DNA of 32,000 nucleotides from positions 270,001 through 302,000 of the forward strand of contig CALSTM010000001.1 of NCBI GenBank assembly GCA_943789275.1, in the 5' to 3' direction. The notes beneath the pieces were generated by a model that was given only the letters and a program-made list of their open reading frames with translations, did no database searches and was not told the DNA's origin. The translations under genes and the position numbers were made by a program. Within the stretch, counting starts at the first letter, position 1, and every line of letters starts with the position of its first letter. Origin of the DNA: Candidatus Poseidoniaceae archaeon. GTDB taxonomy: Archaea; Thermoplasmatota; Poseidoniia; Poseidoniales; Poseidoniaceae. This document shows positions 5,079 to 31,490 of the stretch, piece by piece.

Positions 5079-5122
5079 GTGTCGTGCTCAACACGTCTGT
5101 TATTCAATGTTGCTCAAATAAT

Positions 5123-5135
5123 ATGCATGATGCAT
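5123..5135. promoter_or_regulatory. Perfect 13-bp palindrome ATGCATgATGCAT abutting an A/T-rich TATA-like element, 45-57 nt upstream of the thiR start; candidate operator
   Basis: Read directly: ATGCAT (5123-5128), g (5129), ATGCAT (5130-5135). The flanking aaataatat (5116-5124) is TATA-like when read on the minus strand (atattattt). No binding data are available. Confidence 0.3.
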
Positions 5136-5387
5136 CCGCTTCCGCATGGCTTTTGAACTGTTTCGAGGCTAAACTGGGTGTTCACCATCGTGCGTAAAGG
5201 ATTTAGTGCCTTCAGCTGGAGGGGATTCATGACATACCCTTCTTCTTGTCTCTTTTTTTGGCTTTTGCATTCGAATACAGTAGAAAAACCAACCCAGTGG
5301 GTCGTTAATCAAGTTGCATATTTTTTCATTCGGACATCATAAAGTAGTGTTGATGCTTTACTTTTTGAGTATGTATTCCCCTTTTCA

Positions 5388-6854: not shown

Positions 6855-6866
6855 GGAACGTGGCTT

Positions 6867-16192: not shown

Positions 16193-17536
16193 CTATTGTT
16201 CAGACTCGTCGACGGTCCTGATGAGTCGCCGAAACGGTGCTGATTTTTGGTCGCTAATGCGCAGTGCATGGTTGAGTTTCGTGATGTGCTCCGAGCTTAA
16301 TGGCTCTTCATGATGGACTGTAATCCATTTGTCACCCGCAGTGATGGCTTCATTTTTCCGTGCAGTTAGGATAAATCCGACAGCATGCAGTATTTCGTCC
16401 TCCATTGAGAAGCGCCCTGCACCCAGCTCACGTGCAACCTCAGCAAGTGCCATCGCATCGATCGATTGTACAAAACCTGATTGTGAAGAAAGGAATTCTG
16501 TCGAGCGCTGAGACTTGGGGAGGACAGATTCGGGGTCAAGGGCAAGTTTGGTTGCAACTGCAATTTCAGTGCCTTGTTGTACGCACATTTTGACAAATGT
16601 TTCCAACGCTTGACCGTTATCGAGAACTCGGGCAATCCTGCTCTTTCCCTCTTCAAGCGTTGCTGTCTTTCCGGTGAGGTGCAATAATTGTCCGCCTTGG
16701 AGCATCACCAACTCTCGTGTGTCCCCCGAACCATGACCTTGGAGTACGAGTATACTCCCTGTAACTTCCAGAGCGTTACCAATATGCGTTCCAATCGGTT
16801 CGTTCATGTCTGTGACTTGAGCAATAGTTTTGATTCCCAGACCGTTGGCAGTACGAACCATTGATTCAGCCAATTGGACCGCATCATGTTCTGTTTTCAT
16901 AAATGCTGCTCGACCGCATTTGACATCAAGAACCAGTGCATTCAAGCCCTCAGCCGCCTTTTTAGAGACAATGGATGCGGTAATGAGCGGTATACTGTCC
17001 ACGGTATCCGTGACATCGCGTATTGCATAGAGCAGACCATCAGCGGGAGCGATTGAATCGTTTTGTGCTGCAATGCAACAGCCAACACTTTCAACAGTCT
17101 TGGACATTTTTTCGGGAGAAAGATTGCAATTGAACCCGGGAATGGATTCGAGCTTGTCAATGGTTCCTCCAGTATGACCCAAGCCGCGACCGGCAAGCAT
17201 CGGGACACGAACTCCACATGCGGCAAGAGCTGGAGCAAGTATGAGTGACATCTTGTCACCGACTCCACCTGTACTGTGCTTGTCGCAGACATTTGAATCA
17301 CCTCGCCAAGTGAGTACGGCTCCTGAATTCATCATTCCTGCGGTGAGGGCTGTCGTCTCTTCAACTGAAATGCCATGCGAATGAACACATTTCAACCAGA
17401 CTTCGATAAGTTCAACGGGTAGTGTACGTCGTGCGACTCCATCGATGAAAGCGTTTAAATCTCCAAGGACCATTTTCTCACCGCTACGAACAGCCTCGCA
17501 CATTCGCTGGATGAGTGTATGACTCATGTCGCTCAC
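16193..17536 (-). CDS. deoA: Thymidine / pyrimidine-nucleoside phosphorylase family protein
   Basis: The DKHSTGGVGDK motif and the glycosyltransferase family 3 layout. At 447 aa it matches bacterial-type TP/PyNP rather than the ~500-aa archaeal AMP phosphorylase with its extra N-terminal domain. The GTG at 17536 overlaps the upstream stop by 4 nt; the first ATG is at 17527. Confidence 0.85.
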   Translation of the reverse strand: MSDMSHTLIQRMCEAVRSGEKMVLGDLNAFIDGVARRTLPVELIEVWLKCVHSHGISVEETTALTAGMMNSGAVLTWRGDSNVCDKHSTGGVGDKMSLILAPALAACGVRVPMLAGRGLGHTGGTIDKLESIPGFNCNLSPEKMSKTVESVGCCIAAQNDSIAPADGLLYAIRDVTDTVDSIPLITASIVSKKAAEGLNALVLDVKCGRAAFMKTEHDAVQLAESMVRTANGLGIKTIAQVTDMNEPIGTHIGNALEVTGSILVLQGHGSGDTRELVMLQGGQLLHLTGKTATLEEGKSRIARVLDNGQALETFVKMCVQQGTEIAVATKLALDPESVLPKSQRSTEFLSSQSGFVQSIDAMALAEVARELGAGRFSMEDEILHAVGFILTARKNEAITAGDKWITVHHEEPLSSEHITKLNHALRISDQKSAPFRRLIRTVDESEQ

Positions 17537-18495
17537 TTCTCTTCTGCGAGGCCGATTTCAACGAGGCGTTGGTGGAGATAATCACCAGCCGTAATGGATT
17601 GGTAGTTGACTTCCCCTCCGGTCATTTCAACGAATTCGGGGCGAGGCGTGAGGTCAACTTCATTTCGGGGATGAACAAACATTGGCATTGAGAAACGCCG
17701 CTCACTTGAATTTTCAGGGTTGACGACTCGGTGTGTTGTTGATTTGAATAAGCCATTTGTCAAGTTTTGGAGCATGTCTCCAGAATCGACAATAATATTG
17801 CTCGCATCACCCTCAACTTGAATCCAACTTCCGTCGTGGTCCATGACTTCAAGCCCATCAGCAGTTGCGGTCACCAAAAGCGTGATGAAATTGATATCTT
17901 CATGTGCAGCGGAGCGTACGGCGCCTTTCGGGACGTCATCACCAAGTGGGGGATAGTGTATGATTCGCATGATTGTATTTCCATCTTCAGCCATTGAACC
18001 CAACCAATTCGAAGGCTTGTTGAGGTAAAGACTGCACGACTGCAGAAGGTTTTTCGAAAGAGATTCCATTTTCGTGTACAGCCCATCAATGACTGCTTTG
18101 AAACCAGTTACATGTTGGTCTGGCCATACATTGGGGACATAGGTCGGCGTTTTACCAGTGGTCGGGTGGCTACGTCCTGTCTGCCAGAATTCCTTGAGGT
18201 CAGGTGCAGGATTGTTCTTTGCATGTTCAATGCCAAAGGCAGTGTAGCCTCTTTGATGAGAAATTTCGGGTTGCAGGTATGAGCGCTTCACCTCGTCGTT
18301 AAGCGAGAAGAACTCGTCGCCTTGCTGATAGGAATCGTCGATGGATTCCATGGGTATTCCGTGGTTTTTCAAGGCAAAAAAGCCAATATCCTTCAGTGAG
18401 TCTCCAACTGCTTTGATGAAGCCGATTCGACGTTCTTCATCTTGGCTAAGGTAGTCTGCGTAGTCGACTACCGGGATACTGCGCATCCAATCCAC
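17533..18495 (-). CDS. 2-oxoglutarate/Fe(II)-dependent oxygenase (isopenicillin-N-synthase-like family)
   Basis: An N-terminal DIOX_N-like region, the facial triad H-x-D (AAHEDINFITLL) plus a distal His (TTHRV), and the 2OG-binding R-x-S (RRFSMPMF). 320 aa. Confidence 0.85.
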   Translation of the reverse strand: MDWMRSIPVVDYADYLSQDEERRIGFIKAVGDSLKDIGFFALKNHGIPMESIDDSYQQGDEFFSLNDEVKRSYLQPEISHQRGYTAFGIEHAKNNPAPDLKEFWQTGRSHPTTGKTPTYVPNVWPDQHVTGFKAVIDGLYTKMESLSKNLLQSCSLYLNKPSNWLGSMAEDGNTIMRIIHYPPLGDDVPKGAVRSAAHEDINFITLLVTATADGLEVMDHDGSWIQVEGDASNIIVDSGDMLQNLTNGLFKSTTHRVVNPENSSERRFSMPMFVHPRNEVDLTPRPEFVEMTGGEVNYQSITAGDYLHQRLVEIGLAEEK

Positions 18496-18496
18496 C

Positions 18497-19255
18497 TCAA
18501 TTCATGTTGGAACGAACCTTGGAAAGGAGTCTCAACATTTCCCAGTAAATCCAGATGACGGTAACGAGTAGCCCAAAAGCTCCCCACCATTCGCCGACCT
18601 TCGGGGTTTGCTGTTTAATTCCAGATTCGATAAAATTGAAATCGAGAATCAAATTGGCACTTGCAACACCAAGAATGAATACCGTGACAAGAATGCCAAT
18701 AGGTCCATTTGAGTGCAAGAACGGAATTTGGAGTGAGCCTGGAATCAAACTGAGGATGAAGGATGAGATGTACAACAAGAATACGCCGAGTGTGAGACTG
18801 ATGACAATTCGTTGAAACATTGGTGTTGCTTTGATGATTCGAGTCGCATACAAACCGTACATACCTCCAACGAGGCAGAGCGTACCGAGTCCGGCTTGGA
18901 ACACGATGCCTGAATACATACTCTCAAAATAAAGCGAAATACCACCAACAAATGCTCCTTCGAAAATGGCGTATGTCATCATGAGGGGTACTGGATTTTT
19001 TGGGCGCATGAAGATGAGTATCATTGCTGTAATAAATCCGCCAAGCATTCCGCCCATCCATGCCATAAATGCAATGCCAATGTCGATTGTCAGGGCAGCA
19101 TATACCACAATTGCTGCAATCAGAAGGGTAGTTCCGAACAGAATCCCAATCTTCTGCATTGCACCTTCATAGGACATTGATTCATAGCCCTCGATGTTGT
19201 TCCAAAAATTGTTTGAAAGGACAGGATTACTCGATGTGTAGGCCATAGTGCTCAT
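18497..19255 (-). CDS. Bax-inhibitor-1 / YccA-like integral membrane protein (BaxI_1-type)
   Basis: Seven predicted TM helices and an N-terminal SSNPVLS motif typical of the prokaryotic BI-1-like family. I chose the start at ATG 19253-19255 (MSTMAYTSSNPVL). The longer ORF to 19351 would overlap the preceding gene by 58 nt. Confidence 0.7.
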   Translation of the reverse strand: MSTMAYTSSNPVLSNNFWNNIEGYESMSYEGAMQKIGILFGTTLLIAAIVVYAALTIDIGIAFMAWMGGMLGGFITAMILIFMRPKNPVPLMMTYAIFEGAFVGGISLYFESMYSGIVFQAGLGTLCLVGGMYGLYATRIIKATPMFQRIVISLTLGVFLLYISSFILSLIPGSLQIPFLHSNGPIGILVTVFILGVASANLILDFNFIESGIKQQTPKVGEWWGAFGLLVTVIWIYWEMLRLLSKVRSNMN

Positions 19256-19293
19256 GCCAAGGACGAGTAGGTCCCTTGTCAATCTTGTGCTGT

Positions 19294-22200
19294 TCAAGAG
19301 TGTTCTTCGACTTGTTGTTGATAGTATGCGGCAAGTTGGTCCATTGGCCATCCCTGATCAAGATATTTTTGGATCGTCTCTTCAGACCATCCTGGGCAAC
19401 GAGCTAAATCTTCAGGTGACAGACCTGTACTCGCAGCCTCATCACCGCTTCCATCGAGGACAGGCATTTGCCAATTTCCATCGTCGATTTCACCGTTTGC
19501 TAATGCATCGAGATTTTGACTTTCGAGGGTGATGAGTTCCTTGATTTCTTCACCTTCCGATTCGATGTTTCGGAGGATGAGGAATGCGCCTGCGGCAAGG
19601 ACAAGACCTCCAAGCATGGCGACGAACATCATGGTCGTTCCAAGATTGGAACTGGTATCGGCACTTGGCGTGGCAATTGAGTTGCGCTGCTCTGTTGAGC
19701 ATCCATCGTCGCTTACCGGAACGTTTGCGGGTGTGTCGGGGCATTTGTCATCTCGATTGATGACTCCATCTCCATCGTCGTCGAGCAGTTCTGTATCAAT
19801 CACTGAGGTGTTGTCATTCGGAATGACGCCGGCCAAATCGCATCCGAGCGTTTCGGATTCGTTGACGCCATCACCGTCTGCATCGGCCAGCAGCAATGCG
19901 TCTGAAGGTGAGACATCTTCCACAGATGGGTCTAAAGCGGTTGCTTGAGCCCATGTGACTTCGATCATATCGGGGATACAATCTCCGTCGGTATCCGTAT
20001 TGGTAGCATGGCTTCCGAATGTGTATTCGAGGCTGTTGATGAGGCCATCGCCATCTGCATCGTGATCTCCTTCGAGGATATTGAAACTTGGAAGTGTTCG
20101 AGTCGTACGATTGAGGCCATTGGCTACTTCCCAGTAATCCGGCAACCCATCGTTATCGGTATCGGTCACATTGTCCGTTCGAATCCAATCTCTGTGCCAT
20201 CCGGCCATGAACGGAGCAGTCACTTCGCTGCTGGATAGGATTAACCCCATTTCACGGTTTCGTGTTGGTGCGGAATCTCCCCAGTTGATGGAGGAAATGA
20301 GTACATGTTCACCGTCGACAATGACACCTTTATTGTGAAGTTTTGACACTTCATCATCTTCGCTCATCACAATAGCGTTCACATCGTATCCTAATGAGGA
20401 ATTCCAGTCTTCATTGAAAGTGTCAATGACTTCTTGAATATCTTTGTCGAGGTACGCTCCGTTGAGGATAAGTCGGATACGAACATCCTGCTGTGCAGCA
20501 GCTTCTAAAGCGCTAACAATCGGATTATCTCCCCAACCCCAGCTCCATTCAACGTCGAGGTACTGAAGCGAGAGAAGAATTTCTTCATCGGCTTGTTCAA
20601 TCATCCAAACAATACCATCGACGCAGGTGTCAGGGCAAGTAATCAGTCGACCACTGACATCTGTAGTGATGTTGTCAGCAGCGGTTGCGTTGGTAATTGA
20701 TTTCAGTGCATCAAGTGACCATCCCGAAGGTGCAGAGTTTGCATTGACTTGCGTGATGTATGTTCGGCTGAGAGATTCATCGTATGAGATCTGTTCCAGT
20801 ACTTGCATGGCGAGGTCTGAGTTTTCAATGATGACTCCCCATTCTGAGTTTCCTCTGTCATCAGGTGCAGGTTGAGACGAACTCTTCCAGTTGCCCGAAC
20901 TCATCCATACACTCGTGTTATCTCGTACGGCCACTTTGCTGTGGATGTATGTGTATGGCTCGTCACTCTGTCCACCGAACCAGAGCGTTGTGATTCCAGC
21001 GGTAGCCAACAGACCTGCAACGCCAAGTTGGTTGTTCTTGTCGTAGTTGTTCCACCAGTACTCCGCAGTGTTGAGGACAACGGTGACGTCAACGCCGCGG
21101 TTATGGGCTTCAATGAGTGCCTGTACCAGGTTTGGTTGCTCGATTTGGTACAGGTGAACATGAAGTGTTTCAGATGCGCCGTCAATCCAGTTCAACAAGT
21201 CAACAAGTCCTTCTTGTGGGCCGATGAGTGGAGTGACTGTACTGATGCCACTGAATTCAGTTGGACCGCAGAATGTGCTGGCTCCAAGCCTGCCCCAGCG
21301 GTGTTGCCAATCCAATGCCAGGTCGGTATCAGGTAAGTTTCCACAACCATCTCCTCGATGGTAAACCAACAGGGAGATGCTGGAAACTGGTTCAACCAGA
21401 CTGATACCACTCCATCCTGCGATGTCAACTGGCCCGTTGCCATACACGAAGGTATCCGCAAGCATCCCTGACGGGGTCATGATGTGCACAGCGGCACCGG
21501 AATCGGGAAGTGTAAATCCAGATGGACTGAGTGCTTCATCAAAGCCAACTCCAACTCCATCTTCATAGACCGATAGCCCACTTGCGTCTGCTGCAAGAAG
21601 AACCGAACTGTTCGCAGGAATACTCACATCACCAATTTGGTAATTGGTAGCCTCGTTCGCTGAATTGACCATTGAGAGTGTCCAGCCGTTCATGTATGCG
21701 AGACTGTCGCCGATGTTGGTGATTTCAATGAATTCAGTGTTGGCTGAAATATCTGTAGAACCTTCTGGCATGAATCTGCTGAATACGATGTCATCGGCCT
21801 CTGCAAAGAGACTTGCATCAGGCTCTGCAGCGCCTGGTGTGGGCCACAAGAGTGTTTGCCAACCGGATTGGTCTTGGCTCGGGCCAACGGTTTGGCAATC
21901 GCTAACGATACTCCACTGAGCCATATCGACCACGGTCCCATCCGGATTTGAAAGCGTGAACTGGTCAGAAAGGCCAGAGAGAACATCATCGTCCATGAGG
22001 AGCACAGCCCGCTCTTGTGGGGCAAGAACCATGCTGCTTTGGTTCCACATTGATGTGCTGCGTAAGAAGCGCCGGTCTTCGCCAGCAGTATCGATTCGCC
22101 AACGGCTGATGTTGAGGTCTTGCGTTCCGTTGTTCATCACTTCAATCCAATCTTCAACAGGTGTGACGGAGTCATCGTTGCAGTAGGCGAGTGCTTCGGT

Positions 22201-24195
22201 AAGTACCAAGTCATTCGATTCTGAGTATGCCGCCCATACCGGATTCATTTCACCAGGTGTTGACCATGCGGATTGTATCCAATCGGTTCCGTTCGATGCG
22301 GCAGTGCCCATTGGTCCTGCACCAGCATGTGTGCTGTTCGGCGCGATGAGTGATTCACCTTCAACGGTCGATGACCAAGAGATGGTATCAACCATGTCAC
22401 CGTTTCCGTCAACCATAATGATTGTATCCGGGGTTGTGTGCTTCAGATAGAAACTGGTTGTACCGTTGAGTGCAATAAGGGCAACTTCACCAGGTTGAAT
22501 GACGGATGTTGATTGCAATGGCATGTTGAATTGATGCAGTGTCAGCGAACGGCCTGCTGCTTGGAACTTCCAACCTCCGACATCCAAAGCCATAGTACCG
22601 TTGTTGTAGATTTCAATCCACTCGCCGAGAGGCCATTGTTGTGAATCGCTTCCAACAGCATCGGGGAAGACCTCAGTAAATATGGCAACACCAGTGGAGG
22701 GTGCTTCAACTGGGTCCGGTTGACCGGGTGTCATCCACGTCGAAGGCACCCATGGGTCTGCAGCCAATTCTGCAGGTACGAGAGAGATGTTTTGGCCGTA
22801 ATGTGTGGCATACCAAGCGGAATCGACAACCGCACCGGTGTCATCTCGAAGCATAATTTGATTGTAGTAATCCCAAAGTTCAGTGTCCCCGGAGAACTGA
22901 ACGAGGCGACGCTCTCCGGCATCGATGGAAGTCGACCCTTGTGTTTGGTTGAACACCAAAGTTCCCGGGTCAAGAATCGTGACATTGCCCATCCCATCGA
23001 TGATTGACCAACCGTTGAGGTCAACGGTCGAAGTGCCTGTGTTCAGCAGTTCGATCCATTCGCCATCAGGGAAAGCAGAACCATCTGAACTGCTGTTGGA
23101 TAGAATTTCAGCAAATTCGATTGGCGACGGCGTGTTTGCGATGAGTTCGAAAGCGAGAGGGTTGCTTGAATTGAGGGTAGGATAGGCTGCATAGACCCAA
23201 AACGGAGAGGTTGATGATTCAACCATTGAGAATCCTGCTTCGGTATCGGTCCACGAAACCTGTTGGGCTTTGCTTCCATTTGGCCACAAGAGTGTAAGAG
23301 TTTCAACACCGTTGTTGAGGACGCCGGAGTTTCCTGAGCCGTTTACTGCAATGATTCGAGTCTCACCAGGTAGAATGATGTTTTCTGAAAGGGTCTGTGA
23401 GAAGCCGACCAAGTGCATTGCATTGAAATCGAGTTTGTTTCCAGCTGCATCTTCAATCGACCAACCGTTGAGGTCGATGTTGTTCGAGCCAGAGTTGAGC
23501 ACTTCAATCCATTCGCCACCCGGCCAAATTGCATTGTCCTCAGATGGCCAAGGGTTCGACATGACTTCATGGATGATGAGGTCCGAAGGAATGAGTGTTG
23601 GACCAGGTGTTGTGCTGCCACCAGAGTTGATACCACCAGGGGTTAGTCCGCTGGTTGCAGTCCAGTCTGCAGTTGGAGTACCGTTGACTTCTTCATAACT
23701 GACTCCGGAAGCAGCGCTTGACGACCAAGTGGCTTGGTCCAGTTGGGCCCCAGCATCGGTGTAAAGGGTAATGATGTCGTTCGTATTTGCGAAGTAAAAG
23801 GCCGAGGTTGGAAGTCCGTTACGTGCGACAACCATGTATTCATCAGGCTCGAGTTCCCAACTCGATGAGTTTGAAGCATCGTAGTCAACAATGCTTGCTG
23901 AATCAAAGTAGAGTGTTTTTGACGCCTTGTTCGTCAAGTACCAACCGAGCACATCCACTGTTGATGTTCCTGAGTTGTGAATCTCCATCCATTCCCCACC
24001 AGGCCATGTTGCGTTGTCAGCTCCGCTTGGATTTGGAAGTACTTCATTGAGGCAAATATCACCGCTGCAAGCAAGCGAACGTGCCGAGGTAGAATCGATG
24101 TTTTCAGTCTCATTAAGCGTTGACACACCCATCGGCAAAGTCGTCGAAAGTACCATCAAAGCAGCGAGGCAAAAGGAGCGGAGTACAAGATTCAT
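19294..24195 (-). CDS. Giant (1633 aa) surface-anchored protein: signal peptide, 6 lamin-tail domains, dual-HKD phospholipase-D-fold domain, TSP3 Ca-binding repeats, C-terminal TM, 91-aa cytoplasmic tail
   Basis: Signal peptide MNLVLRSFCLAALMVLSTTLPMG. There are six LTD cores (e.g. WPGGEWIEVLNSGSNNIDLNGWSI). HKD motifs are YIHSKVAVRD...SSGNW (His codon 20941-20943) and LHNKGVIVDG...SSINW (His codon 20335-20337). D-x-D-x-D-G loops follow, then the TM segment TTMMFVAMLGGLVLAAGAFLIL. A GGTGG SD-like site precedes the ATG, and there are many N-x-S/T sequons. Confidence 0.85.
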   Translation of the reverse strand: MNLVLRSFCLAALMVLSTTLPMGVSTLNETENIDSTSARSLACSGDICLNEVLPNPSGADNATWPGGEWMEIHNSGTSTVDVLGWYLTNKASKTLYFDSASIVDYDASNSSSWELEPDEYMVVARNGLPTSAFYFANTNDIITLYTDAGAQLDQATWSSSAASGVSYEEVNGTPTADWTATSGLTPGGINSGGSTTPGPTLIPSDLIIHEVMSNPWPSEDNAIWPGGEWIEVLNSGSNNIDLNGWSIEDAAGNKLDFNAMHLVGFSQTLSENIILPGETRIIAVNGSGNSGVLNNGVETLTLLWPNGSKAQQVSWTDTEAGFSMVESSTSPFWVYAAYPTLNSSNPLAFELIANTPSPIEFAEILSNSSSDGSAFPDGEWIELLNTGTSTVDLNGWSIIDGMGNVTILDPGTLVFNQTQGSTSIDAGERRLVQFSGDTELWDYYNQIMLRDDTGAVVDSAWYATHYGQNISLVPAELAADPWVPSTWMTPGQPDPVEAPSTGVAIFTEVFPDAVGSDSQQWPLGEWIEIYNNGTMALDVGGWKFQAAGRSLTLHQFNMPLQSTSVIQPGEVALIALNGTTSFYLKHTTPDTIIMVDGNGDMVDTISWSSTVEGESLIAPNSTHAGAGPMGTAASNGTDWIQSAWSTPGEMNPVWAAYSESNDLVLTEALAYCNDDSVTPVEDWIEVMNNGTQDLNISRWRIDTAGEDRRFLRSTSMWNQSSMVLAPQERAVLLMDDDVLSGLSDQFTLSNPDGTVVDMAQWSIVSDCQTVGPSQDQSGWQTLLWPTPGAAEPDASLFAEADDIVFSRFMPEGSTDISANTEFIEITNIGDSLAYMNGWTLSMVNSANEATNYQIGDVSIPANSSVLLAADASGLSVYEDGVGVGFDEALSPSGFTLPDSGAAVHIMTPSGMLADTFVYGNGPVDIAGWSGISLVEPVSSISLLVYHRGDGCGNLPDTDLALDWQHRWGRLGASTFCGPTEFSGISTVTPLIGPQEGLVDLLNWIDGASETLHVHLYQIEQPNLVQALIEAHNRGVDVTVVLNTAEYWWNNYDKNNQLGVAGLLATAGITTLWFGGQSDEPYTYIHSKVAVRDNTSVWMSSGNWKSSSQPAPDDRGNSEWGVIIENSDLAMQVLEQISYDESLSRTYITQVNANSAPSGWSLDALKSITNATAADNITTDVSGRLITCPDTCVDGIVWMIEQADEEILLSLQYLDVEWSWGWGDNPIVSALEAAAQQDVRIRLILNGAYLDKDIQEVIDTFNEDWNSSLGYDVNAIVMSEDDEVSKLHNKGVIVDGEHVLISSINWGDSAPTRNREMGLILSSSEVTAPFMAGWHRDWIRTDNVTDTDNDGLPDYWEVANGLNRTTRTLPSFNILEGDHDADGDGLINSLEYTFGSHATNTDTDGDCIPDMIEVTWAQATALDPSVEDVSPSDALLLADADGDGVNESETLGCDLAGVIPNDNTSVIDTELLDDDGDGVINRDDKCPDTPANVPVSDDGCSTEQRNSIATPSADTSSNLGTTMMFVAMLGGLVLAAGAFLILRNIESEGEEIKELITLESQNLDALANGEIDDGNWQMPVLDGSGDEAASTGLSPEDLARCPGWSEETIQKYLDQGWPMDQLAAYYQQQVEEHS
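19711..20175 (-). repeat. Thrombospondin type-3-like Asp-rich calcium-binding repeats (5 loops) forming a membrane-proximal stalk
   Basis: DTDNDGLPD, DADGDGLIN, DTDGDCIPD, DADGDGVNE and DDDGDGVINRDDKCPD, read from the translation (aa 1341-1495). Confidence 0.7.
20191..21243 (-). other. Phospholipase-D-superfamily catalytic region with two HKD motifs (aa ~985-1335 of the giant protein)
   Basis: H1085-S-K-x4-D and H1287-N-K-x4-D, each followed ~12 residues later by the (G/S)-x-N-W element that completes PLD/Nuc-type half-sites. Confidence 0.8.
21421..24060 (-). repeat. Array of six lamin-tail-domain (LTD) repeats, each ~120-125 aa, within the giant protein (aa ~46-925)
   Basis: Six recurrences of the [FW]P-x-GEWIE-[ILV]-x-N-x-G-x4-[DN]-[LVI]-x-GW core, at aa 64, 224, 375, 521, 680 (degenerate: VEDWIEVMNNG) and 820 (degenerate: TEFIEITNIG). 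Each is followed by a beta-rich segment ending in a W-x-(S/T) motif. Confidence 0.75.
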
Positions 24196-24275: not shown

Positions 24276-25787
24276 TCAAAGGAAACCTGCGTTATCGACA
24301 AGGTTCTCGAACAGCAAATAGGTGATTGGAACAAGAATGACACCCATGGCGTGGCTTCGGCGTATTCCAAGACGTGGTGGGAGAAGTCCGAGCATGGTTC
24401 CGACGATGAGCACGGCAAGTCCGATGAACCCAGTACTCACAAAGACCAGTGCTGCAACGAATATGATGACGCTCATGATCATCTGTTGCAACGGAATTGC
24501 AGCGTGCAGTCGAAGCATACCTTTGCCAACGTATCGCATGATTGGCATTGCCATAAGACCAGCAGCCAATGTGATGGCGAGTAACCGGATGAAATCTGCA
24601 GTTGGCTCAGTGTTGCTCCATGTGTCAACAGGATACATGGCTTTGAGAGCCAGCGTTGCCCCGGAGCGTGAACGGCCGATGATGTAAAGGAAACCAAGAA
24701 CACAAACGGTGACGGCGGTGTTCACTGCCGAAAGGATGGCAATAATTTCCAAATCTTGTTTGGTTTGTGGACCTTCAACACCCTCATCGGATTCGGCTTT
24801 GGCGATTTCCAGGAGTTCGTCGTCAGAGAGTTCAGTTAATCGGCGAGTTTCCCAATCCATTCCAAATCCTTGTTTCCCTTGGAGTTTAGCTGCGACGTTG
24901 CGCCCACCCATCACGAGGACAGTTGCTTGTGATGCGGTCATTCCAGGCAATACACCCATCGATGCGCCTGCTACTCCGGACCAAAAGCAAGGAACCAAGA
25001 GAGGTCGTGCAGGAGGCAAGTCCCAGTTTTCTTTTTGAGGCGGCAGGTGTGAGGTTGTTGCATAGATGTCCAGCAAGTTCGCAATTCCGAACAATCCAGC
25101 AAGACTTGGTAGGAGAAGACTTGCACCTGGCATATCGATTGGAGAACGTCCGGGTAGAGCATGTGGGCCGATAATGGTCCAACCAAACAGGCCAGTCAAC
25201 AAGAAGAACGCTGTGGCTGAAAAGAAACCTGCAAATCTTGAATCTTCGCCCAGTCGCTTTCCAGTTGCCACTTGAATCCATTTCGGCCAGTCGAGTCGTG
25301 TCGTTTCCGTCATCAAAAGCAGTGCTGAGATGGTAAGGAGGATGAACGGAAGAAAGGTGCGAAGTTGAGAGTACCATCCGAGTTCTGGCCCGAATGCAAT
25401 TCTTGCGAGAACAATCAACGGCAAAGAAAGGAACAAACCGAGCTGCGAGCCACGTGCAGACCACGCTACACCACGCGCCGCATTACCTGACAAAAGCATG
25501 CGATGGCCGGGCAGTAAAGATAACGCCTGGTCCGCATCTGGTGCTCCCATAAGCGCTGAGGGAATATAATTCAAGAATGTGTGAACCGTACCTGTCGATA
25601 CAATGATTCCAGCAACGGCTGAAAGCGGGATTCCAAGGCTCAGCAGCCCCGGTGCCAAGGCAAGTAGGATAAGTGCGACATTGTTGACGTGGAAACCGGG
25701 GATGATTCCGGTAAGCGTCCCCATCGCAACACCCCCAAACAGAGCAGCGAGCATCCAACTCAGTTCGTACATGTAGGCATCAAGCAT
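24276..25787 (-). CDS. TctA-family (DUF112) tripartite-tricarboxylate-transporter-like large permease, stand-alone
   Basis: 503-aa polytopic protein with the family's G-x3-G-x2-PG-x-(G/H) N-terminal motif (GTLTGIIPGFHV), repeated later (GVLPGMTAS). An acidic cytoplasmic insert (ELSDDELLEIAKAESDEGVEG) separates the two halves. No TctB or TctC gene is adjacent. Confidence 0.7.
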   Translation of the reverse strand: MLDAYMYELSWMLAALFGGVAMGTLTGIIPGFHVNNVALILLALAPGLLSLGIPLSAVAGIIVSTGTVHTFLNYIPSALMGAPDADQALSLLPGHRMLLSGNAARGVAWSARGSQLGLFLSLPLIVLARIAFGPELGWYSQLRTFLPFILLTISALLLMTETTRLDWPKWIQVATGKRLGEDSRFAGFFSATAFFLLTGLFGWTIIGPHALPGRSPIDMPGASLLLPSLAGLFGIANLLDIYATTSHLPPQKENWDLPPARPLLVPCFWSGVAGASMGVLPGMTASQATVLVMGGRNVAAKLQGKQGFGMDWETRRLTELSDDELLEIAKAESDEGVEGPQTKQDLEIIAILSAVNTAVTVCVLGFLYIIGRSRSGATLALKAMYPVDTWSNTEPTADFIRLLAITLAAGLMAMPIMRYVGKGMLRLHAAIPLQQMIMSVIIFVAALVFVSTGFIGLAVLIVGTMLGLLPPRLGIRRSHAMGVILVPITYLLFENLVDNAGFL

Positions 25788-25799
25788 GAAACGTCCTCC

Positions 25800-27557
25800 C
25801 TAGTTTCCACTGTTTGGACCTGTGCCGTTTTCCACTTCCTCGCGGTCAGTGATTCCGTCACCGTCCGTATCTTCGGTGTTGGAATTGAAGCCTGCCGCAT
25901 CTTCATAACTGTCGGCAAGGCGGTCGCCATCATCGTCTTGCGCATCCGCTTCATCGAGGGAATAAACGATGGATAATTGGCTCGGATGTTCAATCTGACG
26001 AAGTCTACCCTCCCAAGTGAGCGATTGATTCTCATGGATTGAATCGGTTCCAATAGCGTTGAGTTGTACATTGAGTTTAATGGATTGGTCAGACCCCGGG
26101 CGTTCAAGGTACCATCCATCGTCCTTGAGTGCGGCTTTACCGTCGATAAGAACAAACTGGTTTTTGGAATAGCCCCATTGTGTTGCGCCATCGTCCCAAA
26201 GGAGGGTCGAAGGAGGTGGTGGATTCCCGGTGAGGTTGTAGGAGTTCACCATGAGGCGGATTCGCATGTCTTCATCGTCCCATGCTACGGTGACATCAGC
26301 AACAACGCCTTGACCAGATTCAATCCAGTCGGTACGGGGTCCGGGGAATGTCATGGCGATTGTCGTCTGTCCAAACGTGTAGGTTTGGCTGTCGACAAAG
26401 TAACCTTCAGTGTCCAAGGGTTCGAAAGCGTATTTCATGTAGGTGTTAATGGTGTAATGCATGTATGGGTTTTCAAGCATTGAGGCAGGGTCAGCAGACA
26501 GCATGGCCTGCATTGACATTGCAGACATAGGATTGACGAGGTTTTGTCCCATGCCTTGGTTTGCATCGATGCACCACGTGCTCCTGTCGTCGCTCCACAT
26601 TAATCGTCCTTCAGCATCAAAAATGGAGTTATTGTAACTTCCATCAGCAGCGTTCTCGATATCTTCAGTTGTTGGGATAACGCAGATGGTATTGCCGCTG
26701 GGTCCGACCAGATCCCATACGCCGTCTTCGATGTGCAACGTTCCTGCGAGGATGACCTTACTGCCGGATTGGTAGCTCCATGTTGCTTCTGTAGCCCAAT
26801 CGAGACGATTGACGGGGGGTACATGGCTTCCATCGATGAGAATATCTGGCCCTTGAGTATGAAGCGCCCATCGGAGGCTCGTTTCTTGATAGGATAGAAT
26901 TCCACTGACTTCAATCTTCGAATCAGATTCAATCCACTTGCCGGTTGCCGATTGAATGAGCAGTTGCATTTGGTGAGCAGCGTTTCCTGGGTGGTCGGTA
27001 ATGTATGCGGAAGTGTAGACGGCATCTGGGCTTACAGATTTACTGATGAAACCGTTGACCGTCACTATTTTGCCAAGATAATCTGAAGGAGCAACTGCGA
27101 TGTCTGACAGCGAGACTCTCTCGAGAGTTGGTAAATCTTTAGCTTCCCAATACAACGCACCAGAGCCTGTTGCCTGCATGAAGAATCGTCCGTTATAGTC
27201 GACAACATCACCCATGGCCGTCACATTCGTACCTATGGGGGGGATTGTCCCGGTTGAATACCATCGAACTTGGATCACTCCAGTCTCGTCTTCGATGACC
27301 AAGTCGACACGGTCTTCACCGCTGCCGTATCGGTCTTCAATCCACGAAATGACTTTTCCTTCAACCAATACCACTTCGTTCTTGTATTGCACGAGGTCTT
27401 CGATTTCGACCACTTGCGGTTCGCGAACCATAGCGTACCAGTTCAACGTAGCCACTAAGAATAACGAAAGAGCGAACATAACCCACAACTTTTGACCCCG
27501 TGTAGCCGGATTGTCATCGGTTATCTTGAGCATAATGTCCTTGAGAGCATCCGCCAT
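25800..27557 (-). CDS. N-terminally membrane-anchored extracellular protein with tandem OB-fold-like domains and a C-terminal TSP3-like Asp-rich tail
   Basis: Signal-anchor helix (LWVMFALSLFLVATLNWYAMV). At least two segments show an OB-fold-like strand pattern (VVLVEGKVISW...DLVIEDETGVIQVRW...GTNVTAMGDVVDYNGRF, and KIVTVNGFISK...AYITD...MQLLIQ...SKIEVSGILSY). The C-terminus is DDDGDRLAD...DTDGDGITD (25803-25955). The fold assignment is by eye only. Confidence 0.6.
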   Translation of the reverse strand: MADALKDIMLKITDDNPATRGQKLWVMFALSLFLVATLNWYAMVREPQVVEIEDLVQYKNEVVLVEGKVISWIEDRYGSGEDRVDLVIEDETGVIQVRWYSTGTIPPIGTNVTAMGDVVDYNGRFFMQATGSGALYWEAKDLPTLERVSLSDIAVAPSDYLGKIVTVNGFISKSVSPDAVYTSAYITDHPGNAAHQMQLLIQSATGKWIESDSKIEVSGILSYQETSLRWALHTQGPDILIDGSHVPPVNRLDWATEATWSYQSGSKVILAGTLHIEDGVWDLVGPSGNTICVIPTTEDIENAADGSYNNSIFDAEGRLMWSDDRSTWCIDANQGMGQNLVNPMSAMSMQAMLSADPASMLENPYMHYTINTYMKYAFEPLDTEGYFVDSQTYTFGQTTIAMTFPGPRTDWIESGQGVVADVTVAWDDEDMRIRLMVNSYNLTGNPPPPSTLLWDDGATQWGYSKNQFVLIDGKAALKDDGWYLERPGSDQSIKLNVQLNAIGTDSIHENQSLTWEGRLRQIEHPSQLSIVYSLDEADAQDDDGDRLADSYEDAAGFNSNTEDTDGDGITDREEVENGTGPNSGN

Positions 27558-27648: not shown

Positions 27649-27656
27649 CTTTTTAA
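27649..27656 (+). promoter_or_regulatory. TATA-like box (CTTTTTAA) for the HD-domain gene; implies a leaderless or near-leaderless transcript starting near 27677
   Basis: An A/T-rich octamer overlaps the first in-frame ATG (27656). Three further ATGs lie at 27677, 27683 and 27689, at the distance expected for an archaeal TSS (~22-27 nt downstream of a TATA box). Confidence 0.3.
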
Positions 27657-27676
27657 TGGAAAAGCAGACCGGTCTT

Positions 27677-28984
27677 ATGGGGATGGCCATGCGAGACCGG
27701 GTGATTCGAGACGAAATTCACAAGGATATTTTCGTTCCTGCCGCTCACGCTAAAATAATTGACACCCGTGAATTCCAGCGTCTACGCTCGATTCAACAAC
27801 TGTCAACTTGTGAGTATGTTTTTCCTGCAGCCAACCACAATCGTTTTTCGCACTCTTTAGGGGCATACCACCTTGCTCGAACCCTTGTTGATTCGCTCAA
27901 CGATGTCCAGCCGGGTCTTGTTTCCGACGACGATGCAGAATTAATTCAACTTGCGGCTTTGTTGCACGATATTGGTCACCCACCTTTTTCACACCTTCTT
28001 GAATCACCGGAAGTTTTTGCAACATACCATTCGCATGAACACTGGGGCAGAGTTTTGCTTGAATCTGAAGACACTGAAGTAGGAATCGCTTTGCTCGAGG
28101 CACTCGGGCGTACTCGGCGCGACCGCCTTTTTGCCCTGCTTGACGGGGCGAAAGAGCACGAAGGTATCGCCATCCCGCCGTTCATGAAGGAAATAGTCTC
28201 CAGTCAACTTGACGTTGACCGCATGGATTACATGGTTCGTGACCAGGCAAATACCGGTGCGCAAATTGGTGGGTTTGATATTGCTCGAGTCATACGTGCA
28301 TTGCGAGTAAGTGATGACGGTCATTTTTTCGTGAAATCATGGGGACTTCCTGCGATTGAGGCCTACCTCGTGACTCGATACCATATGTACCATCAAGTCT
28401 ACTTCCATAAGGTCAACATGCTGACGCAGAATTACCTTGTCCGTATGCTCTCTCGTGCACGAGCATTGGCTCAAGAAGGTGAATTGACTCTCTCACCCTC
28501 TCTTGCGGATATGTTACTCAATTCGGATCTGGATGCCAAGGGCTATGCAGCGCTTAACGATGCACATGTCCGAGTTGCTTTACCGGATTGGGCCGAACAT
28601 GAAGATGCAACTTTATCTCACTATGCAATGCGTTTACTCTCACGCCGAGACTTCCATAAATCGTTGCGTATTGAAGGCTTGAGTACTGAAATGGTGACCG
28701 TTGTTTTACCTCGCTTACAGGCACTGGTTGCTGATGCTGGATTTGATCCGTCGATCGATGTCATCACCGCACGAATCTCGAAGCGTGGCTACATGCCGTA
28801 TGAGCAAGGCATTCTTCTGGAAGACGGGCGCGATGCTGCGGACCATTCACCGCTTGTTCGTTCGCTAACGCAACCAAACGAGAGGGCACTGATTTTTGTC
28901 CCTGATGCAATCCGTGACGAACTTGAACTCAGTGTTCGAGAATGGGTCAAACCTTCGCAATCCTCACTTGCCCAGTTTGAATGA
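27677..28984 (+). CDS. HD-domain phosphohydrolase, COG1078 / SAMHD1-like (putative dNTP triphosphohydrolase)
   Basis: The motifs FQRLRSIQQL, NRFSHSLGAYHLA, LLHDIGHPPFSH and LDVDRMDYMVRD are the hallmarks of the SAMHD1/EF1143-type HD family. The start is ambiguous (27656, 27677, 27683 or 27689). The family's usual N-terminus (x3-5-I-x-D-x-IH) favours the later ATGs. Confidence 0.85.
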   Translation: MGMAMRDRVIRDEIHKDIFVPAAHAKIIDTREFQRLRSIQQLSTCEYVFPAANHNRFSHSLGAYHLARTLVDSLNDVQPGLVSDDDAELIQLAALLHDIGHPPFSHLLESPEVFATYHSHEHWGRVLLESEDTEVGIALLEALGRTRRDRLFALLDGAKEHEGIAIPPFMKEIVSSQLDVDRMDYMVRDQANTGAQIGGFDIARVIRALRVSDDGHFFVKSWGLPAIEAYLVTRYHMYHQVYFHKVNMLTQNYLVRMLSRARALAQEGELTLSPSLADMLLNSDLDAKGYAALNDAHVRVALPDWAEHEDATLSHYAMRLLSRRDFHKSLRIEGLSTEMVTVVLPRLQALVADAGFDPSIDVITARISKRGYMPYEQGILLEDGRDAADHSPLVRSLTQPNERALIFVPDAIRDELELSVREWVKPSQSSLAQFE

Positions 28985-29194: not shown

Positions 29195-30127
29195 ATGTTT
29201 AAGCGGTCTCTTTTCTTGCTAGCCCTTTACCTCTGCTCAGTTTTGATTGTTGCAGTACCTGCTTCGGCACAGACGCCAACAGCAGCTGTGTCTCTTTCAT
29301 GCGCTCCAATTTCGATTAACATCGAAGTGAAGCCTGGTTCGACGTACAACGGTTTCACGACCTGTACTGCGAACAACCCAACAACCTATCAAGAGAAAAT
29401 CAGTATTCTGGTTACCAGTGATGGTCTTGCTACTGCTGCGCCTGGTGACATGTACATTGGTGCAAGTTCCGAGGTTGACTTCCAAGTCTCTGTTCGAGCA
29501 ACACCTTACATGGTGATGCAAAGCCGTACGCTTTCAGTTTCTGCTCAAGTGCAAGAAATCAACTCTTTGCCTCCGATCAACTCAGCATCGTCCCAGAACA
29601 ACATGATTGTCAACATCATGCAGTATTCATTGGTACAGGTCGAAGCGGTCGAACCTTTCGTTCAATTGATGCCGAAGAAAGACAAGAACTTCGAATTTAA
29701 GGTCTACAATCTTGGTAATCAAATAGATTTCATGAAGGTCGGTATCACTGAATCGAGCCGTGAGAACCTCGAAGAGGCAGGATTCACAATCAACTTGCCT
29801 GCTGTCAAGGTTCAAATTGACGCTATTCCAACGGCGACCAAGGTTCGTGTCATGGCTCGAACTCCAAAGACACAAGGATGGAGCGACGCATACCACGTTC
29901 TCGACTTCTTCGCAGAATCGGAATTCGCTTGTAACAACGGTGGGTGTATCCGTGAATCTCAAATGATTACAGTCTACGTTCGTGGTGTCTATCTCCCCGG
30001 TTTCGAAATAGTTCCCGCAATCTCGATGGTGGCATTGGCCGCAGCAGTTGCTGGCCGACGATTCATTGAAGACCGTGAAGAAGACGAAGAAAACGTCGTC
30101 TGGTACGAATCTGCCCCTGGCCTGTGA
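29195..30127 (+). CDS. Secreted envelope protein with two Ig/CARDB-like beta domains and a PGF-CTERM-like anchor plus acidic extension
   Basis: Signal peptide (LFLLALYLCSVLIVAVPASA-QT), an AGGTGG SD-like site upstream, beta-rich domains (e.g. FEFKVYNLGNQIDFMKV), and the C-terminus LPGFEIVPAISMVALAAAVAGRRF followed by IEDREEDEENVVWYESAPGL. Confidence 0.6.
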   Translation: MFKRSLFLLALYLCSVLIVAVPASAQTPTAAVSLSCAPISINIEVKPGSTYNGFTTCTANNPTTYQEKISILVTSDGLATAAPGDMYIGASSEVDFQVSVRATPYMVMQSRTLSVSAQVQEINSLPPINSASSQNNMIVNIMQYSLVQVEAVEPFVQLMPKKDKNFEFKVYNLGNQIDFMKVGITESSRENLEEAGFTINLPAVKVQIDAIPTATKVRVMARTPKTQGWSDAYHVLDFFAESEFACNNGGCIRESQMITVYVRGVYLPGFEIVPAISMVALAAAVAGRRFIEDREEDEENVVWYESAPGL

Positions 30128-30227: not shown

Positions 30228-31490
30228 ATGAGTGGATTACTTGACAAAGCCAACGCATCGAAAACCGAATCTGAACCAACACAAGTGACAGTTGTTGCTG
30301 AAAAGGTGACCATCGTTTCGCAGCAACCTACAGCACCAGCACTCTCCTCTGCAAGTTCAGGTGGGCCAGACACACCTCTCAAACTCACAATAGCAGGATG
30401 GATTACGATTTTCATCGGAGGCCTTCTTGCCCTACAAGGTGGCGGAATGGGTATTCTTGTCGTACTTGGTGTTCTGGTTGTAGGAACAGGTCTCCTCGTT
30501 CAGTCTGAACGAATGGCTGACCGAGAAATGAATACGGTCAAGCTTGGCATCTCAATTTTCATAGCAATCCTCGTTGCCGCTGGCCCGTATGCTGCTTTTT
30601 ACCTCGTGCCTGCCGACACCTCAATGGCACTCACGGAAATTAATTTGAACGAAGAATCGGATGAACTTACTTTTTATGTCCGTGGTTCCTTCGATTCTGC
30701 AACCGCATCGATAACGCTTGATGGTGAATCGTTGTGGTCAGACTCTTTGCAGTTAAACAACGATCGTGCGAAATTCAAAGTTCCTCTTACCGCCTTCTTT
30801 GCTGGCAACGCTCAAGATTATCGTCTTGCATCAATGAATGAATACATGATTGAAGTCTCTTCGGGTGATGGTCAATCGAAGACTGCTGAAGTTACACCGG
30901 CTCTTCTTAACCGCGAAGTGCTGAACTCTGGTGCTCGGATATCGGAGGTTCTTCGAACTCAAACCTCCGGCGGTGGAAGTCAAGCAACGACGACCACCAC
31001 TGTTGAAGGCGTGATTGTCGAATCCATAATGGGACTGTTTGGGCCAAGTGAAAGCGCTCAAGACAACGGAGAACATTCGATGACCAACCTCGCTCTCACA
31101 CCCGTTGCGTCTGATTACACCGTTCAACTTCGAGTTAAGAAAGGCAGTTCGACAGAATACAGTTCTCCGCTGATCGAAGTCAACGGTCTTGATGCAACAT
31201 GGACCAGTACCGTAGACGGCGCAAAAAGTGGAAAAACAAACGGATGGCTTGGCCTTCCAGGGACTGCAATGGACAACTGGGCAGGCGGTAGTGGTGCTAC
31301 AGAATTCCTCGACAAGGATTCATTCTATGACGGGGCAGGTTGCTATACATTTGAAATCGTCATCACCAACGTATTCTACGCAGGCATGAACGATGTCGAC
31401 TCTGATGCAACTGGAATTACTGTCAGCAGTAACTCTTGGGAACTCAACTTTGATGGCAATACCGAACAACGAGCCATGGAAGTTTGTTGA
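30228..31490 (+). CDS. Hypothetical membrane protein (3 N-terminal TM helices) with large extracellular beta-rich domain
   Basis: The 420-aa ORF has hydrophobic helices at about aa 55-125, followed by a T/S/G-rich linker (SGGGSQATTTTT) and a domain with no motif I recognise. Confidence 0.55.
   Translation: MSGLLDKANASKTESEPTQVTVVAEKVTIVSQQPTAPALSSASSGGPDTPLKLTIAGWITIFIGGLLALQGGGMGILVVLGVLVVGTGLLVQSERMADREMNTVKLGISIFIAILVAAGPYAAFYLVPADTSMALTEINLNEESDELTFYVRGSFDSATASITLDGESLWSDSLQLNNDRAKFKVPLTAFFAGNAQDYRLASMNEYMIEVSSGDGQSKTAEVTPALLNREVLNSGARISEVLRTQTSGGGSQATTTTTVEGVIVESIMGLFGPSESAQDNGEHSMTNLALTPVASDYTVQLRVKKGSSTEYSSPLIEVNGLDATWTSTVDGAKSGKTNGWLGLPGTAMDNWAGGSGATEFLDKDSFYDGAGCYTFEIVITNVFYAGMNDVDSDATGITVSSNSWELNFDGNTEQRAMEVC

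Follow-up and report, generated by a model that had tools for sequence, protein, structure and literature searches.

A putative surface-anchored nuclease of Marine Group II archaea that joins six lamin-tail domains to a dual-HKD phospholipase D fold

Lamin-tail domains (LTDs) recur on extracellular and surface nucleases whose catalytic folds are unrelated (PMC3929857, PMC6746945, PMC6085458, PMC5118699). The surface lipoprotein Hvo_1477 of Haloferax volcanii is important for extracellular DNA metabolism (PMC3929857), and ComA/Hlac_1867 combines a metallo-beta-lactamase with an LTD (PMC5118699). For DNase I-family enzymes of halophiles, it has been proposed that the LTD assists in binding DNA when salt is high (PMC4486849). 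Xds of Vibrio cholerae and ExeM of Shewanella oneidensis are extracellular nucleases made of an LTD, an OB fold, and an EEP domain (PMC6746945, PMC6085458), and a predicted nuclease of Izemoplasma also bears an LTD (PMC8289736). Here we describe an LTD protein with a catalytic domain of the phospholipase D (PLD) fold, which we call the LTD/PLD protein. It is encoded in a 32,000-nucleotide stretch of DNA (the window) from Candidatus Poseidoniaceae archaeon, of the order Poseidoniales or Marine Group II (MGII; GenBank assembly GCA_943789275.1, contig CALSTM010000001.1, positions 270,001 to 302,000 of the forward strand). We think that it is probably a surface-anchored nuclease, or phosphodiesterase, with which an MGII archaeon scavenges dissolved DNA. 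Its proximity to Nuc, NucT, and Zucchini, its genetic linkage to a thymidine phosphorylase and a putative OB-fold protein, the fusion of relatives to PhoX, and the literature on LTD nucleases all favor nucleic acid over lipid as the substrate.

The protein is not categorically new, as its gene is already in databases and its domains are well known. Names given to the gene there include "lamin tail domain-containing protein," "cardiolipin synthase-like," "phospholipase," and "Cardiolipin synthase B." Literature searches combining MGII or Poseidoniales with LTD, phospholipase, or nuclease, and LTD with PLD, returned no paper on the LTD/PLD protein and no published link of MGII to it or of LTDs to PLDs. 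What is new is a PLD-fold module on the LTD-bearing kind of surface nuclease, the sixfold LTD array, and an undescribed, conserved multigene cluster.

A first reading of this DNA, made from the sequence alone, had outlined the protein as a single open reading frame (ORF), and its coordinates, strand, and length of 1,633 amino acids (aa) were exact. The parts of the protein, by position in the window, are the following.

19294..24195, minus strand: whole ORF, with six LTDs, dual-HKD PLD domain, TSP3-like stalk, transmembrane (TM) helix, and tail (ORF call, Pfam, more than 120 full-length orthologues)
24121..24195, minus strand: signal-peptide-like N terminus, aa 1-25, with R6, a hydrophobic core, and PMGVS (predicted from hydropathy)
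23707..24060, minus strand: LTD1, aa 46-163 (Pfam and our own hidden Markov model [HMM])
23233..23586, minus strand: LTD2, aa 204-321 (Pfam and own HMM)
22795..23124, minus strand: LTD3, aa 358-467 (Pfam and own HMM)
22357..22686, minus strand: LTD4, aa 504-613 (Pfam and own HMM)
21895..22212, minus strand: LTD5, aa 662-767 (Pfam and own HMM)
21397..21792, minus strand: LTD6, aa 802-933, followed by a conserved DTDxxxDW linker (own HMM, alignment with distant homologues)
20176..21273, minus strand: two-lobe PLD catalytic domain, aa 975-1340 (two PLDc_2 matches, AlphaFold [AF2], Foldseek, and PDB searches)
20887..20943, minus strand: HKD motif 1, HSKVAVRDNTSVWMSSGNW, aa 1085-1103 (inspection and conservation)
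20281..20337, minus strand: HKD motif 2, HNKGVIVDGEHVLISSINW, aa 1287-1305, followed by an invariant NRE (inspection and conservation)
19741..20163, minus strand: TSP3-like acidic stalk with putative Ca loops, aa 1345-1485 (inspection; TSP3_bac score near threshold)
19573..19635, minus strand: single TM helix, aa 1521-1541 (hydropathy)
19297..19572, minus strand: presumed cytoplasmic tail, 92 aa (alignment of orthologues)

Both of the large domain assignments of the sequence-only reading, six LTDs and a PLD domain with two HKD half-sites, were recovered by Pfam. PF00932 matched the array in six stretches (E = 2.3e-72, 240.7 bits against a cutoff of 34.3), with the boundaries of the individual LTDs placed by our own HMM, and PLDc_2 (PF13091) matched the catalytic domain in two (E = 4.2e-34). 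Hydropathy analysis found only two hydrophobic segments, a signal-like one at aa 2-27 and the single expected TM helix at aa 1521-1541; the n-, h-, and c-region pattern of the former suggests signal cleavage. Five putative Ca loops could be seen between aa 1345 and 1480, the number first proposed, but only four of them follow the D-x-D-x-D-G pattern claimed for all five, the other being DTDGDC. The stalk scored 20.7 to 24.3 bits with TSP3_bac, just under the cutoff of 25, and some orthologues carry a precomputed match to PF18884; Ca binding by the loops is plausible.

The whole protein is strongly acidic, with 14.4% D+E, 3.1% K+R, and a pI of ~4.05. It has 27 N-x-S/T sequons, where more than 20 had been claimed, compared to 17.6 ± 3.7 in shuffled sequences. 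The orthologues have a mean of 24.2 against ~17.2 expected, with seven sequons conserved at 97 to 100%. This modest enrichment is plausibly compatible with glycosylation and is no proof of it. The tail is one residue longer than the 91 aa first given. It carries a strongly conserved Trp/Tyr-rich motif, PGW..E.I..YL.QGW...Q...YY, with PVLDG upstream, that had no match in Pfam, the PDB, or the other genes of the window or of locus L001. The tail could be an anchoring, sorting, or signaling element.

The active-site motifs of the catalytic lobe, HSKVAVRD...SSGNW from aa 1085 and HNKGVIVD...SSINW from aa 1287, have the canonical spacing HxK(x)4D(x)6(G/S)SxN. Neither the H, K, D, and N of the two motifs nor the NRE after the second varies in 116 orthologues or in homologues of 25 to 30% identity, and the four motif residues are likewise invariant in the 38 sequences of alignment A1, described below. 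The PLDc active-site motif PF00614 matched weakly (22.1 bits against a cutoff of 21.9). We compared the lobe with all PDB chains using phmmer and a family profile, and nucleases ranked first with both: Nuc (5.9e-13), NucT (1e-8), and Zucchini (2.5e-8) led with the profile, while classical PLD1/2 appeared at chance level (E ~0.9). Between Nuc and cardiolipin synthase (Cls), the two enzyme types that the sequence-only reading had named for comparison, the profiles leaned toward Nuc. By sequence, the lobe lies closer to nucleases of the Nuc kind than it does to Cls or to PLDs that act on lipids.

The best NCBIfam matches, DrmC and NucT, were both subthreshold. Because the best score with the NucT equivalog models (NF010490-NF010493) was 40.1 bits against a cutoff of 297, we do not file the lobe as a NucT orthologue. 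A role in DISARM defense was rejected, as NF038319 (DrmC) gave 81 bits against a cutoff of 133 and the window holds no Drm genes and gives no defense context. The cardiolipin synthase annotation was likewise rejected (ClsB, 10.6 bits against a cutoff of 281). By its profile scores, the lobe is best classed as Nuc-like and not as a NucT, DrmC, or Cls orthologue, falling short of every curated equivalog cutoff.

Our AlphaFold model of aa 960-1345 has a predicted local distance difference test score (pLDDT) of 90.7 and a predicted template modeling score of 0.91. Foldseek aligned it at full length, over ~400 columns, with single-chain two-HKD enzymes. First in rank were the lysosomal 5' exonucleases PLD3/PLD4 (E ~4e-19, template modeling score ~0.66), with the bacterial PLD 7e0m second and Streptomyces PLD, human PLD1/2, and vaccinia F13 after it. 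The Foldseek probability was 1.00 for PLD3/4, Streptomyces PLD, human PLD1/2, and F13. As modeled, the lobe is a complete, assembled PLD pseudo-dimer, in line with the earlier expectation that the HKD residues would sit in an assembled active site; the modeled fold by itself does not separate nuclease from lipase.

To place the protein among its relatives, we ran an exhaustive search with the lobe, which returned 3,472 cluster representatives, 981 of them at E ≤ 1e-10. Our HMM found LTDs in 81 of the 149 best representatives. Among the 44 distant representatives of at least 640 aa, Pfam found an LTD in 42 and PLDc_2 in all 44, and the only other recurrent modules were PKD, CARDB, Ig, and cohesin. 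The number of LTDs varies from one to six among relatives (two in the MGIIb protein that we scanned, P0439 of Thalassarchaeaceae, 1,015 aa), and the PLD lobe does not vary. Methanophagales and Methanosarcinales are among the named sources of relatives, and Methanomicrobiales have relatives that lack an LTD. Judged by these domain matches, the pairing of an LTD with a dual-HKD PLD is a widespread and common euryarchaeal module. Nearly all distant homologues have an LTD just before the lobe, with the DTDxxxDW linker, and this LTD aligns with LTD6 of the window protein. We therefore take LTD6 plus the PLD lobe to be the ancestral core and LTD1 to LTD5 to be an expansion within Poseidoniaceae.

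Some relatives carry a second predicted enzyme in the same chain. P0446 (L090 9001-13536) consists of an LTD, a PhoX alkaline phosphatase, another LTD, and a dual-HKD PLD, and the same architecture was found in P0445, P0465, P0473, and P0477. The PhoX domain of these fused relatives scores 102 to 109 bits against a cutoff of 24, and their lobe identity is 45%. They sit inside the MGIIb-type cluster with TctA and ThyP described below. From its domains, the PhoX fusion would unite a phosphodiesterase and a phosphomonoesterase in one surface protein.

More than 120 full-length orthologues (47 to 87% identity, 1,615 to 1,655 aa) all contain LTDs and PLDc_2, and those that are named come from metagenome-assembled genomes (MAGs) of Candidatus Poseidoniaceae, Poseidoniales, or "Euryarchaeota archaeon." A scan with alignment A1 (38 sequences, the window lobe and 37 orthologues) found relatives in 267 GTDB species genomes, and our locus comparisons use the best 80 of these. 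All 80 loci are from Poseidoniales, including the original MG-II genome CM001443.1, except two contigs under bacterial names. The closest is that of MAG SI072_bin89, with 95% identity in the lobe. The two exceptions, L056 (CALDQY010000105.1) and L061 (CAXQWT010000029.1), are filed as Rhodobiaceae bacterium and Salipiger bermudensis and carry the complete archaeal cluster; their names are probably due to binning contamination in public assemblies. The LTD/PLD gene is a conserved core gene of Poseidoniales and no oddity, and these matches place the window in MGIIa, the Poseidoniaceae. The sequence-only reading had not recognized its architecture from any characterized protein. This stands insofar as we found neither a characterized protein of the same architecture nor a characterized orthologue with an unrelated role, but the architecture is far from singular. 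The protein diverges faster than the neighboring TctA (49 to 87% against 79 to 99% identity), as is typical for exposed surface proteins.

The genes that accompany LTD/PLD provide a second line of evidence. Four of its neighbors in the window are the following.

25800..27557, minus strand: p585, 585 aa, with an N-terminal TM anchor, a beta-rich tandem OB-like ectodomain, and a C-terminal TSP3 repeat
24276..25787, minus strand: TctA-family membrane transporter
17533..18495, minus strand: 2-oxoglutarate (2OG)-Fe(II) oxygenase, the MGIIa partner, with thymine dioxygenase as its closest characterized solved relative
16193..17536, minus strand: ThyP, thymidine/pyrimidine-nucleoside phosphorylase (NF004490, linkage)

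In MGIIa, p585, TctA, LTD/PLD, BaxI, the 2OG oxygenase, and ThyP form a codirectional, tightly spaced block, which is unbroken in every sufficiently long locus of the 80 Poseidoniaceae genomes; the position of the flanking GuaA varies. The order in MGIIb is a p585-like gene (33% identity), TctA (52%), a 914-aa gene, LTD/PLD, and ThyP, with LTD/PLD and ThyP overlapping by 4 nucleotides (nt) and flanks wholly unlike those of MGIIa. The core of the cluster persists where general synteny is lost. Other lineages have LTD/PLD-2OG-ThyP, and elsewhere AsnC precedes LTD/PLD-ThyP.

ThyP passes the thymidine phosphorylase equivalog NF004490 (441 bits against a cutoff of 269), and its identification as an AMP phosphorylase of the archaeal DeoA type was rejected (179 bits against a cutoff of 535). 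The 2OG oxygenase gene lies directly upstream of ThyP, with a 4-nt overlap in the window. In the PDB, its product matched thymine dioxygenase 5c3p (E = 5e-33) behind two structural-genomics proteins without known function. Together, these assignments suggest a salvage route from thymidine to thymine to uracil in an archaeon. To our knowledge, this route has been described in fungi only.

MGIIa and MGIIb alike keep the third partner, p585, beside TctA and LTD/PLD. Its orthologues match the OB-fold family PF01336 (E = 1.1e-5, 25.7 bits, under the cutoff of 27) and, weakly, DUF4131, which we take to be the N-terminal OB-like region of ComEC. In a low-confidence model (pLDDT 56.7, from an input alignment of 76 to 94% identity), Foldseek matches were dominated by the tandem-OB DNA binders HIN-200, RPA, Teb1, LEF-3, and SSB. 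These matches are suggestive of a tandem OB-fold array in the ectodomain, making p585 a candidate DNA binder.

TctA stands without TctB or TctC nearby. Throughout Poseidoniales it is upstream of LTD/PLD: MGIIa has the two genes side by side, and in MGIIb a single gene (L091 6171-8915, ~914 aa), which had only a faint match to CD36, lies between them. BaxI lies between LTD/PLD and the 2OG oxygenase in MGIIa only. As mechanically called, the ORF of this YccA-like gene (BaxI_1; 18497..19351, minus strand) has a 58-nt overlap with the LTD/PLD stop codon; judging from the L001 orthologue, which has 224 aa, translation probably begins at Met33 or Met36. A divergently transcribed gene at 27656..28984 (plus strand) flanks the MGIIa cluster and is absent from MGIIb loci; it encodes an HD-domain protein (HD and HD_assoc_2) that weakly resembles dGTP triphosphohydrolase. 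Four window ORFs, 6867-8555 (plus), 1307-3103 (minus), 29195-30127 (plus), and 30228-31490 (plus), had no Pfam match; the one of 598 aa among them is flanked by an ABC ATPase and a solute-binding protein and may be the permease. Farther afield, in L003 (positions 5019-7619 and 2953-3750), the distant 2,314-aa homologue P0142 lies beside a PHO4 phosphate transporter, PhoU_div, PhoU, a YfbR-like HD_3 protein, DeoC, and an alcohol dehydrogenase. This looks like a neighborhood of phosphate uptake and deoxynucleotide catabolism.

We propose that the LTD/PLD protein is a type-I membrane-anchored ecto-phosphodiesterase, most likely a nuclease acting on dissolved or particle-bound extracellular DNA. 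The sequence-only reading of a cell-surface phosphodiesterase is thus supported with refinements, and none of the three outcomes that would have refuted it was observed. The TM helix and the acidic, presumably Ca-binding TSP3-like stalk would keep the two-lobe HKD domain near the membrane, and the six Ig-like LTDs would reach outward and help to capture or hold the polymer. The order from the membrane outward, TM helix, stalk, lobe, and then LTD6 to LTD1, suggests that the polymer is captured at the distal end and cut close to the membrane, near the transporter. Members of the PLD superfamily cleave phosphodiesters via a phosphohistidine intermediate, and the two HKD halves would form one active site using this chemistry. 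The products would be processed and imported with the help of the coclustered genes. Here p585 would be a candidate DNA-binding partner, TctA may import hydrolysis products, and ThyP, joined in MGIIa by the thymine-dioxygenase-like (T7H-like) oxygenase, would carry out pyrimidine salvage. The outcome would be a supply of phosphate and pyrimidine.

A wider claim, which we offer tentatively, concerns the system as a whole. The p585/TctA/LTD-PLD/ThyP core of Poseidoniales, with the 2OG oxygenase added in MGIIa and in-chain PhoX in some MGIIb-type relatives, might be an unrecognized system by which the most abundant planktonic archaea in surface waters of the ocean harvest dissolved DNA, built on a new class of PLD-fold surface nuclease with LTDs as salt-tolerant polymer-capture modules.

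Several observations weigh against a DNA-scavenging nuclease. The PLD lobe and every LTD have a pI of ~4.0 to 4.2, which disfavors DNA binding unless divalent cations bridge. The substrate of a PLD-superfamily member cannot be read from its sequence; the Foldseek scores of the phospholipases (Streptomyces PLD, human PLD1/2, and 7e0m) nearly equal those of PLD3/4, and the NCBIfam nuclease scores, 40.1 of 297 bits for NucT and 81 of 133 for DrmC, are far under their cutoffs. The LTD is dispensable for the activity and localization of Xds, and its loss only slowed ExeM in vitro (PMC6746945, PMC6085458). As deletion abolished the activity of neither enzyme, a DNA-binding role of LTDs is unproven. 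The OB assignment of p585 comes from a model of low pLDDT and Pfam matches below threshold, the cluster has no recognizable nucleoside transporter or 5'-nucleotidase, and the surroundings of distant homologues at L004, L005, L006, and L089 gave no functional signal.

The fold similarity gives room to a different enzyme, a surface phospholipase D directed against foreign glycerol-3-phosphate ester lipids of bacterial or algal membranes, vesicles, and detritus, which we consider unlikely. Such an enzyme would free head groups (choline, ethanolamine, and serine) for uptake and spare the cell's own ether lipids, with the LTDs binding membranes; this detailed version is unlikely too. MGII are considered consumers of lipid and protein, which would suit it. 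The modeled lobe matches classical PLDs at E ~1e-17, PF00614 is matched, if weakly (22.1 bits), the family goes by "cardiolipin synthase-like" or "phospholipase" in source annotations, and Mans et al. are cited as having proposed an association of LTDs with membranes. In sequence and profile searches, however, nucleases are far ahead of classical PLDs, which are at chance, and none of the 44 distant relatives is fused to a lipid-binding or interfacial domain. Moreover, PLD action on lipids frees no phosphate, and soluble phosphodiesters fit better with the PhoX fusion, the linkage to ThyP and OB, and the PHO4/DeoC context of P0142.

Those phosphate-related signals would also suit a broad ecto-phosphodiesterase that works upstream of phosphomonoesterases on dissolved organic phosphorus diesters other than DNA, as both the PhoX fusion and the PHO4/PhoU neighborhood indicate phosphate acquisition in general. 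Nuc-type enzymes cleave RNA and DNA alike. We nevertheless hold this reading to be improbable, including its range of candidate substrates: RNA, cyclic nucleotides or oligonucleotides, glycerophosphodiesters, and teichoic-acid-like or phosphoglycan polymers. Against it stand the conserved pairing with ThyP, the thymine-dioxygenase-like neighbor (in MGIIa and one other lineage), and DeoC (at one distant homologue), all of which indicate specifically the catabolism of deoxynucleosides.

The protein might instead be mainly structural or adhesive, an S-layer-like envelope glycoprotein or adhesin whose LTDs attach to particles or cells, with the PLD domain accessory or binding-only. In favor are its large size, high acidity, wealth of sequons, TM anchor, and faster evolution than that of its neighbors, and also the PKD, CARDB, and cohesin modules of its relatives, which are typical for surface proteins. 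We find this reading very improbable, as the invariance of all catalytic residues of both HKD motifs down to 25% identity argues for retained catalysis and it is the LTD number that varies, from one to six, while the PLD lobe stays constant. Finally, a synthase for cardiolipin or phosphatidyl transfer, working from the outer face to remodel the cell's own membrane lipids, a reading prompted by the "Cardiolipin synthase B" annotation of some sources and by the presence of PLDc_2 in Cls enzymes too, has almost nothing left to recommend it given the ClsB score, a predicted signal peptide, LTD array, and ~180-aa stalk that would put the active site outside the cell and off the bilayer, and the lack of the N-terminal TM pair typical of Cls enzymes.

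The nuclease reading also matters beyond this protein. MGII, which are uncultured and have substrates inferred from genomes only, count among the most abundant heterotrophs in the sunlit ocean, and dissolved DNA is a major marine pool of organic phosphorus and nitrogen. If the cluster is a DNA scavenger, MGII would gain a defined part in the turnover of phosphorus and DNA in the sea; the PLD fold would join the catalytic folds paired with LTDs, a clue to prokaryotic LTD function. Were the enzyme a phospholipase instead, we would have a rarity, an archaeon that displays an enzyme against bacterial or eukaryotic lipids. The segment of aa 800-1345 offers an expressible target for biochemistry.

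Compared with known enzymes, the nearest solved relatives of the lobe by sequence are Nuc of the Salmonella plasmid pKM101 (1byr) and NucT of Helicobacter pylori (6ehi), metal-independent PLD-family nucleases that are exported and share the HxK(x)4D(x)6(G/S)SxN geometry. They are single-HKD dimers of 155 to 180 aa, whereas the lobe has two HKD halves in one chain with inserts, and unlike the LTD/PLD protein they have no LTD, stalk, or TM helix. Zucchini/MitoPLD (4ggj) is a membrane-anchored nuclease with a Nuc-like HKD half and an NRE after the HKD; it differs as a single-HKD dimer that is mitochondrial and eukaryotic. That Zucchini formerly passed for a lipid hydrolase illustrates the ambiguity of assigning substrates in the PLD family. 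Among NCBIfam models, that of DISARM DrmC (NF038319) scores highest with the second HKD half (81 bits); unlike the LTD/PLD protein, DrmC is a small cytoplasmic defense protein.

In fold, the best match is to PLD3/PLD4 (8q1x, 8v08), which are single-chain two-HKD enzymes, glycosylated and membrane-anchored in a luminal or ecto orientation, that act on single-stranded DNA and RNA. They share 15 to 17% identity with the lobe, have a eukaryotic type-II anchor, and lack an LTD or TSP3 region, and the likeness is of fold and not a subfamily assignment.

In overall plan, the closest counterparts are the LTD nucleases. Xds and ExeM have a signal peptide, an N-terminal LTD, an OB fold, and a phosphodiesterase, are cell-associated, and serve degradation of extracellular DNA (eDNA) and phosphate supply. 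They are bacterial, have a single LTD, and use Mg-dependent EEP catalysis and not HKD/PLD. The same set of LTD, OB fold, and nuclease would recur here at the level of the gene cluster, with subthreshold support for the OB fold; the OB fold that is in-chain in Xds and ExeM is here a putative one in the neighboring gene p585. Hvo_1477 has no sequence relationship to the LTD/PLD protein except for the LTD, and it differs in its staphylococcal nuclease fold, in having one LTD against six, and in a lipobox in place of a C-terminal TM helix. Like the LTD/PLD protein as we read it, Hvo_1477 is archaeal and surface-anchored, it joins a nuclease module to an LTD, and a role in using eDNA as a nutrient has been proposed for it.

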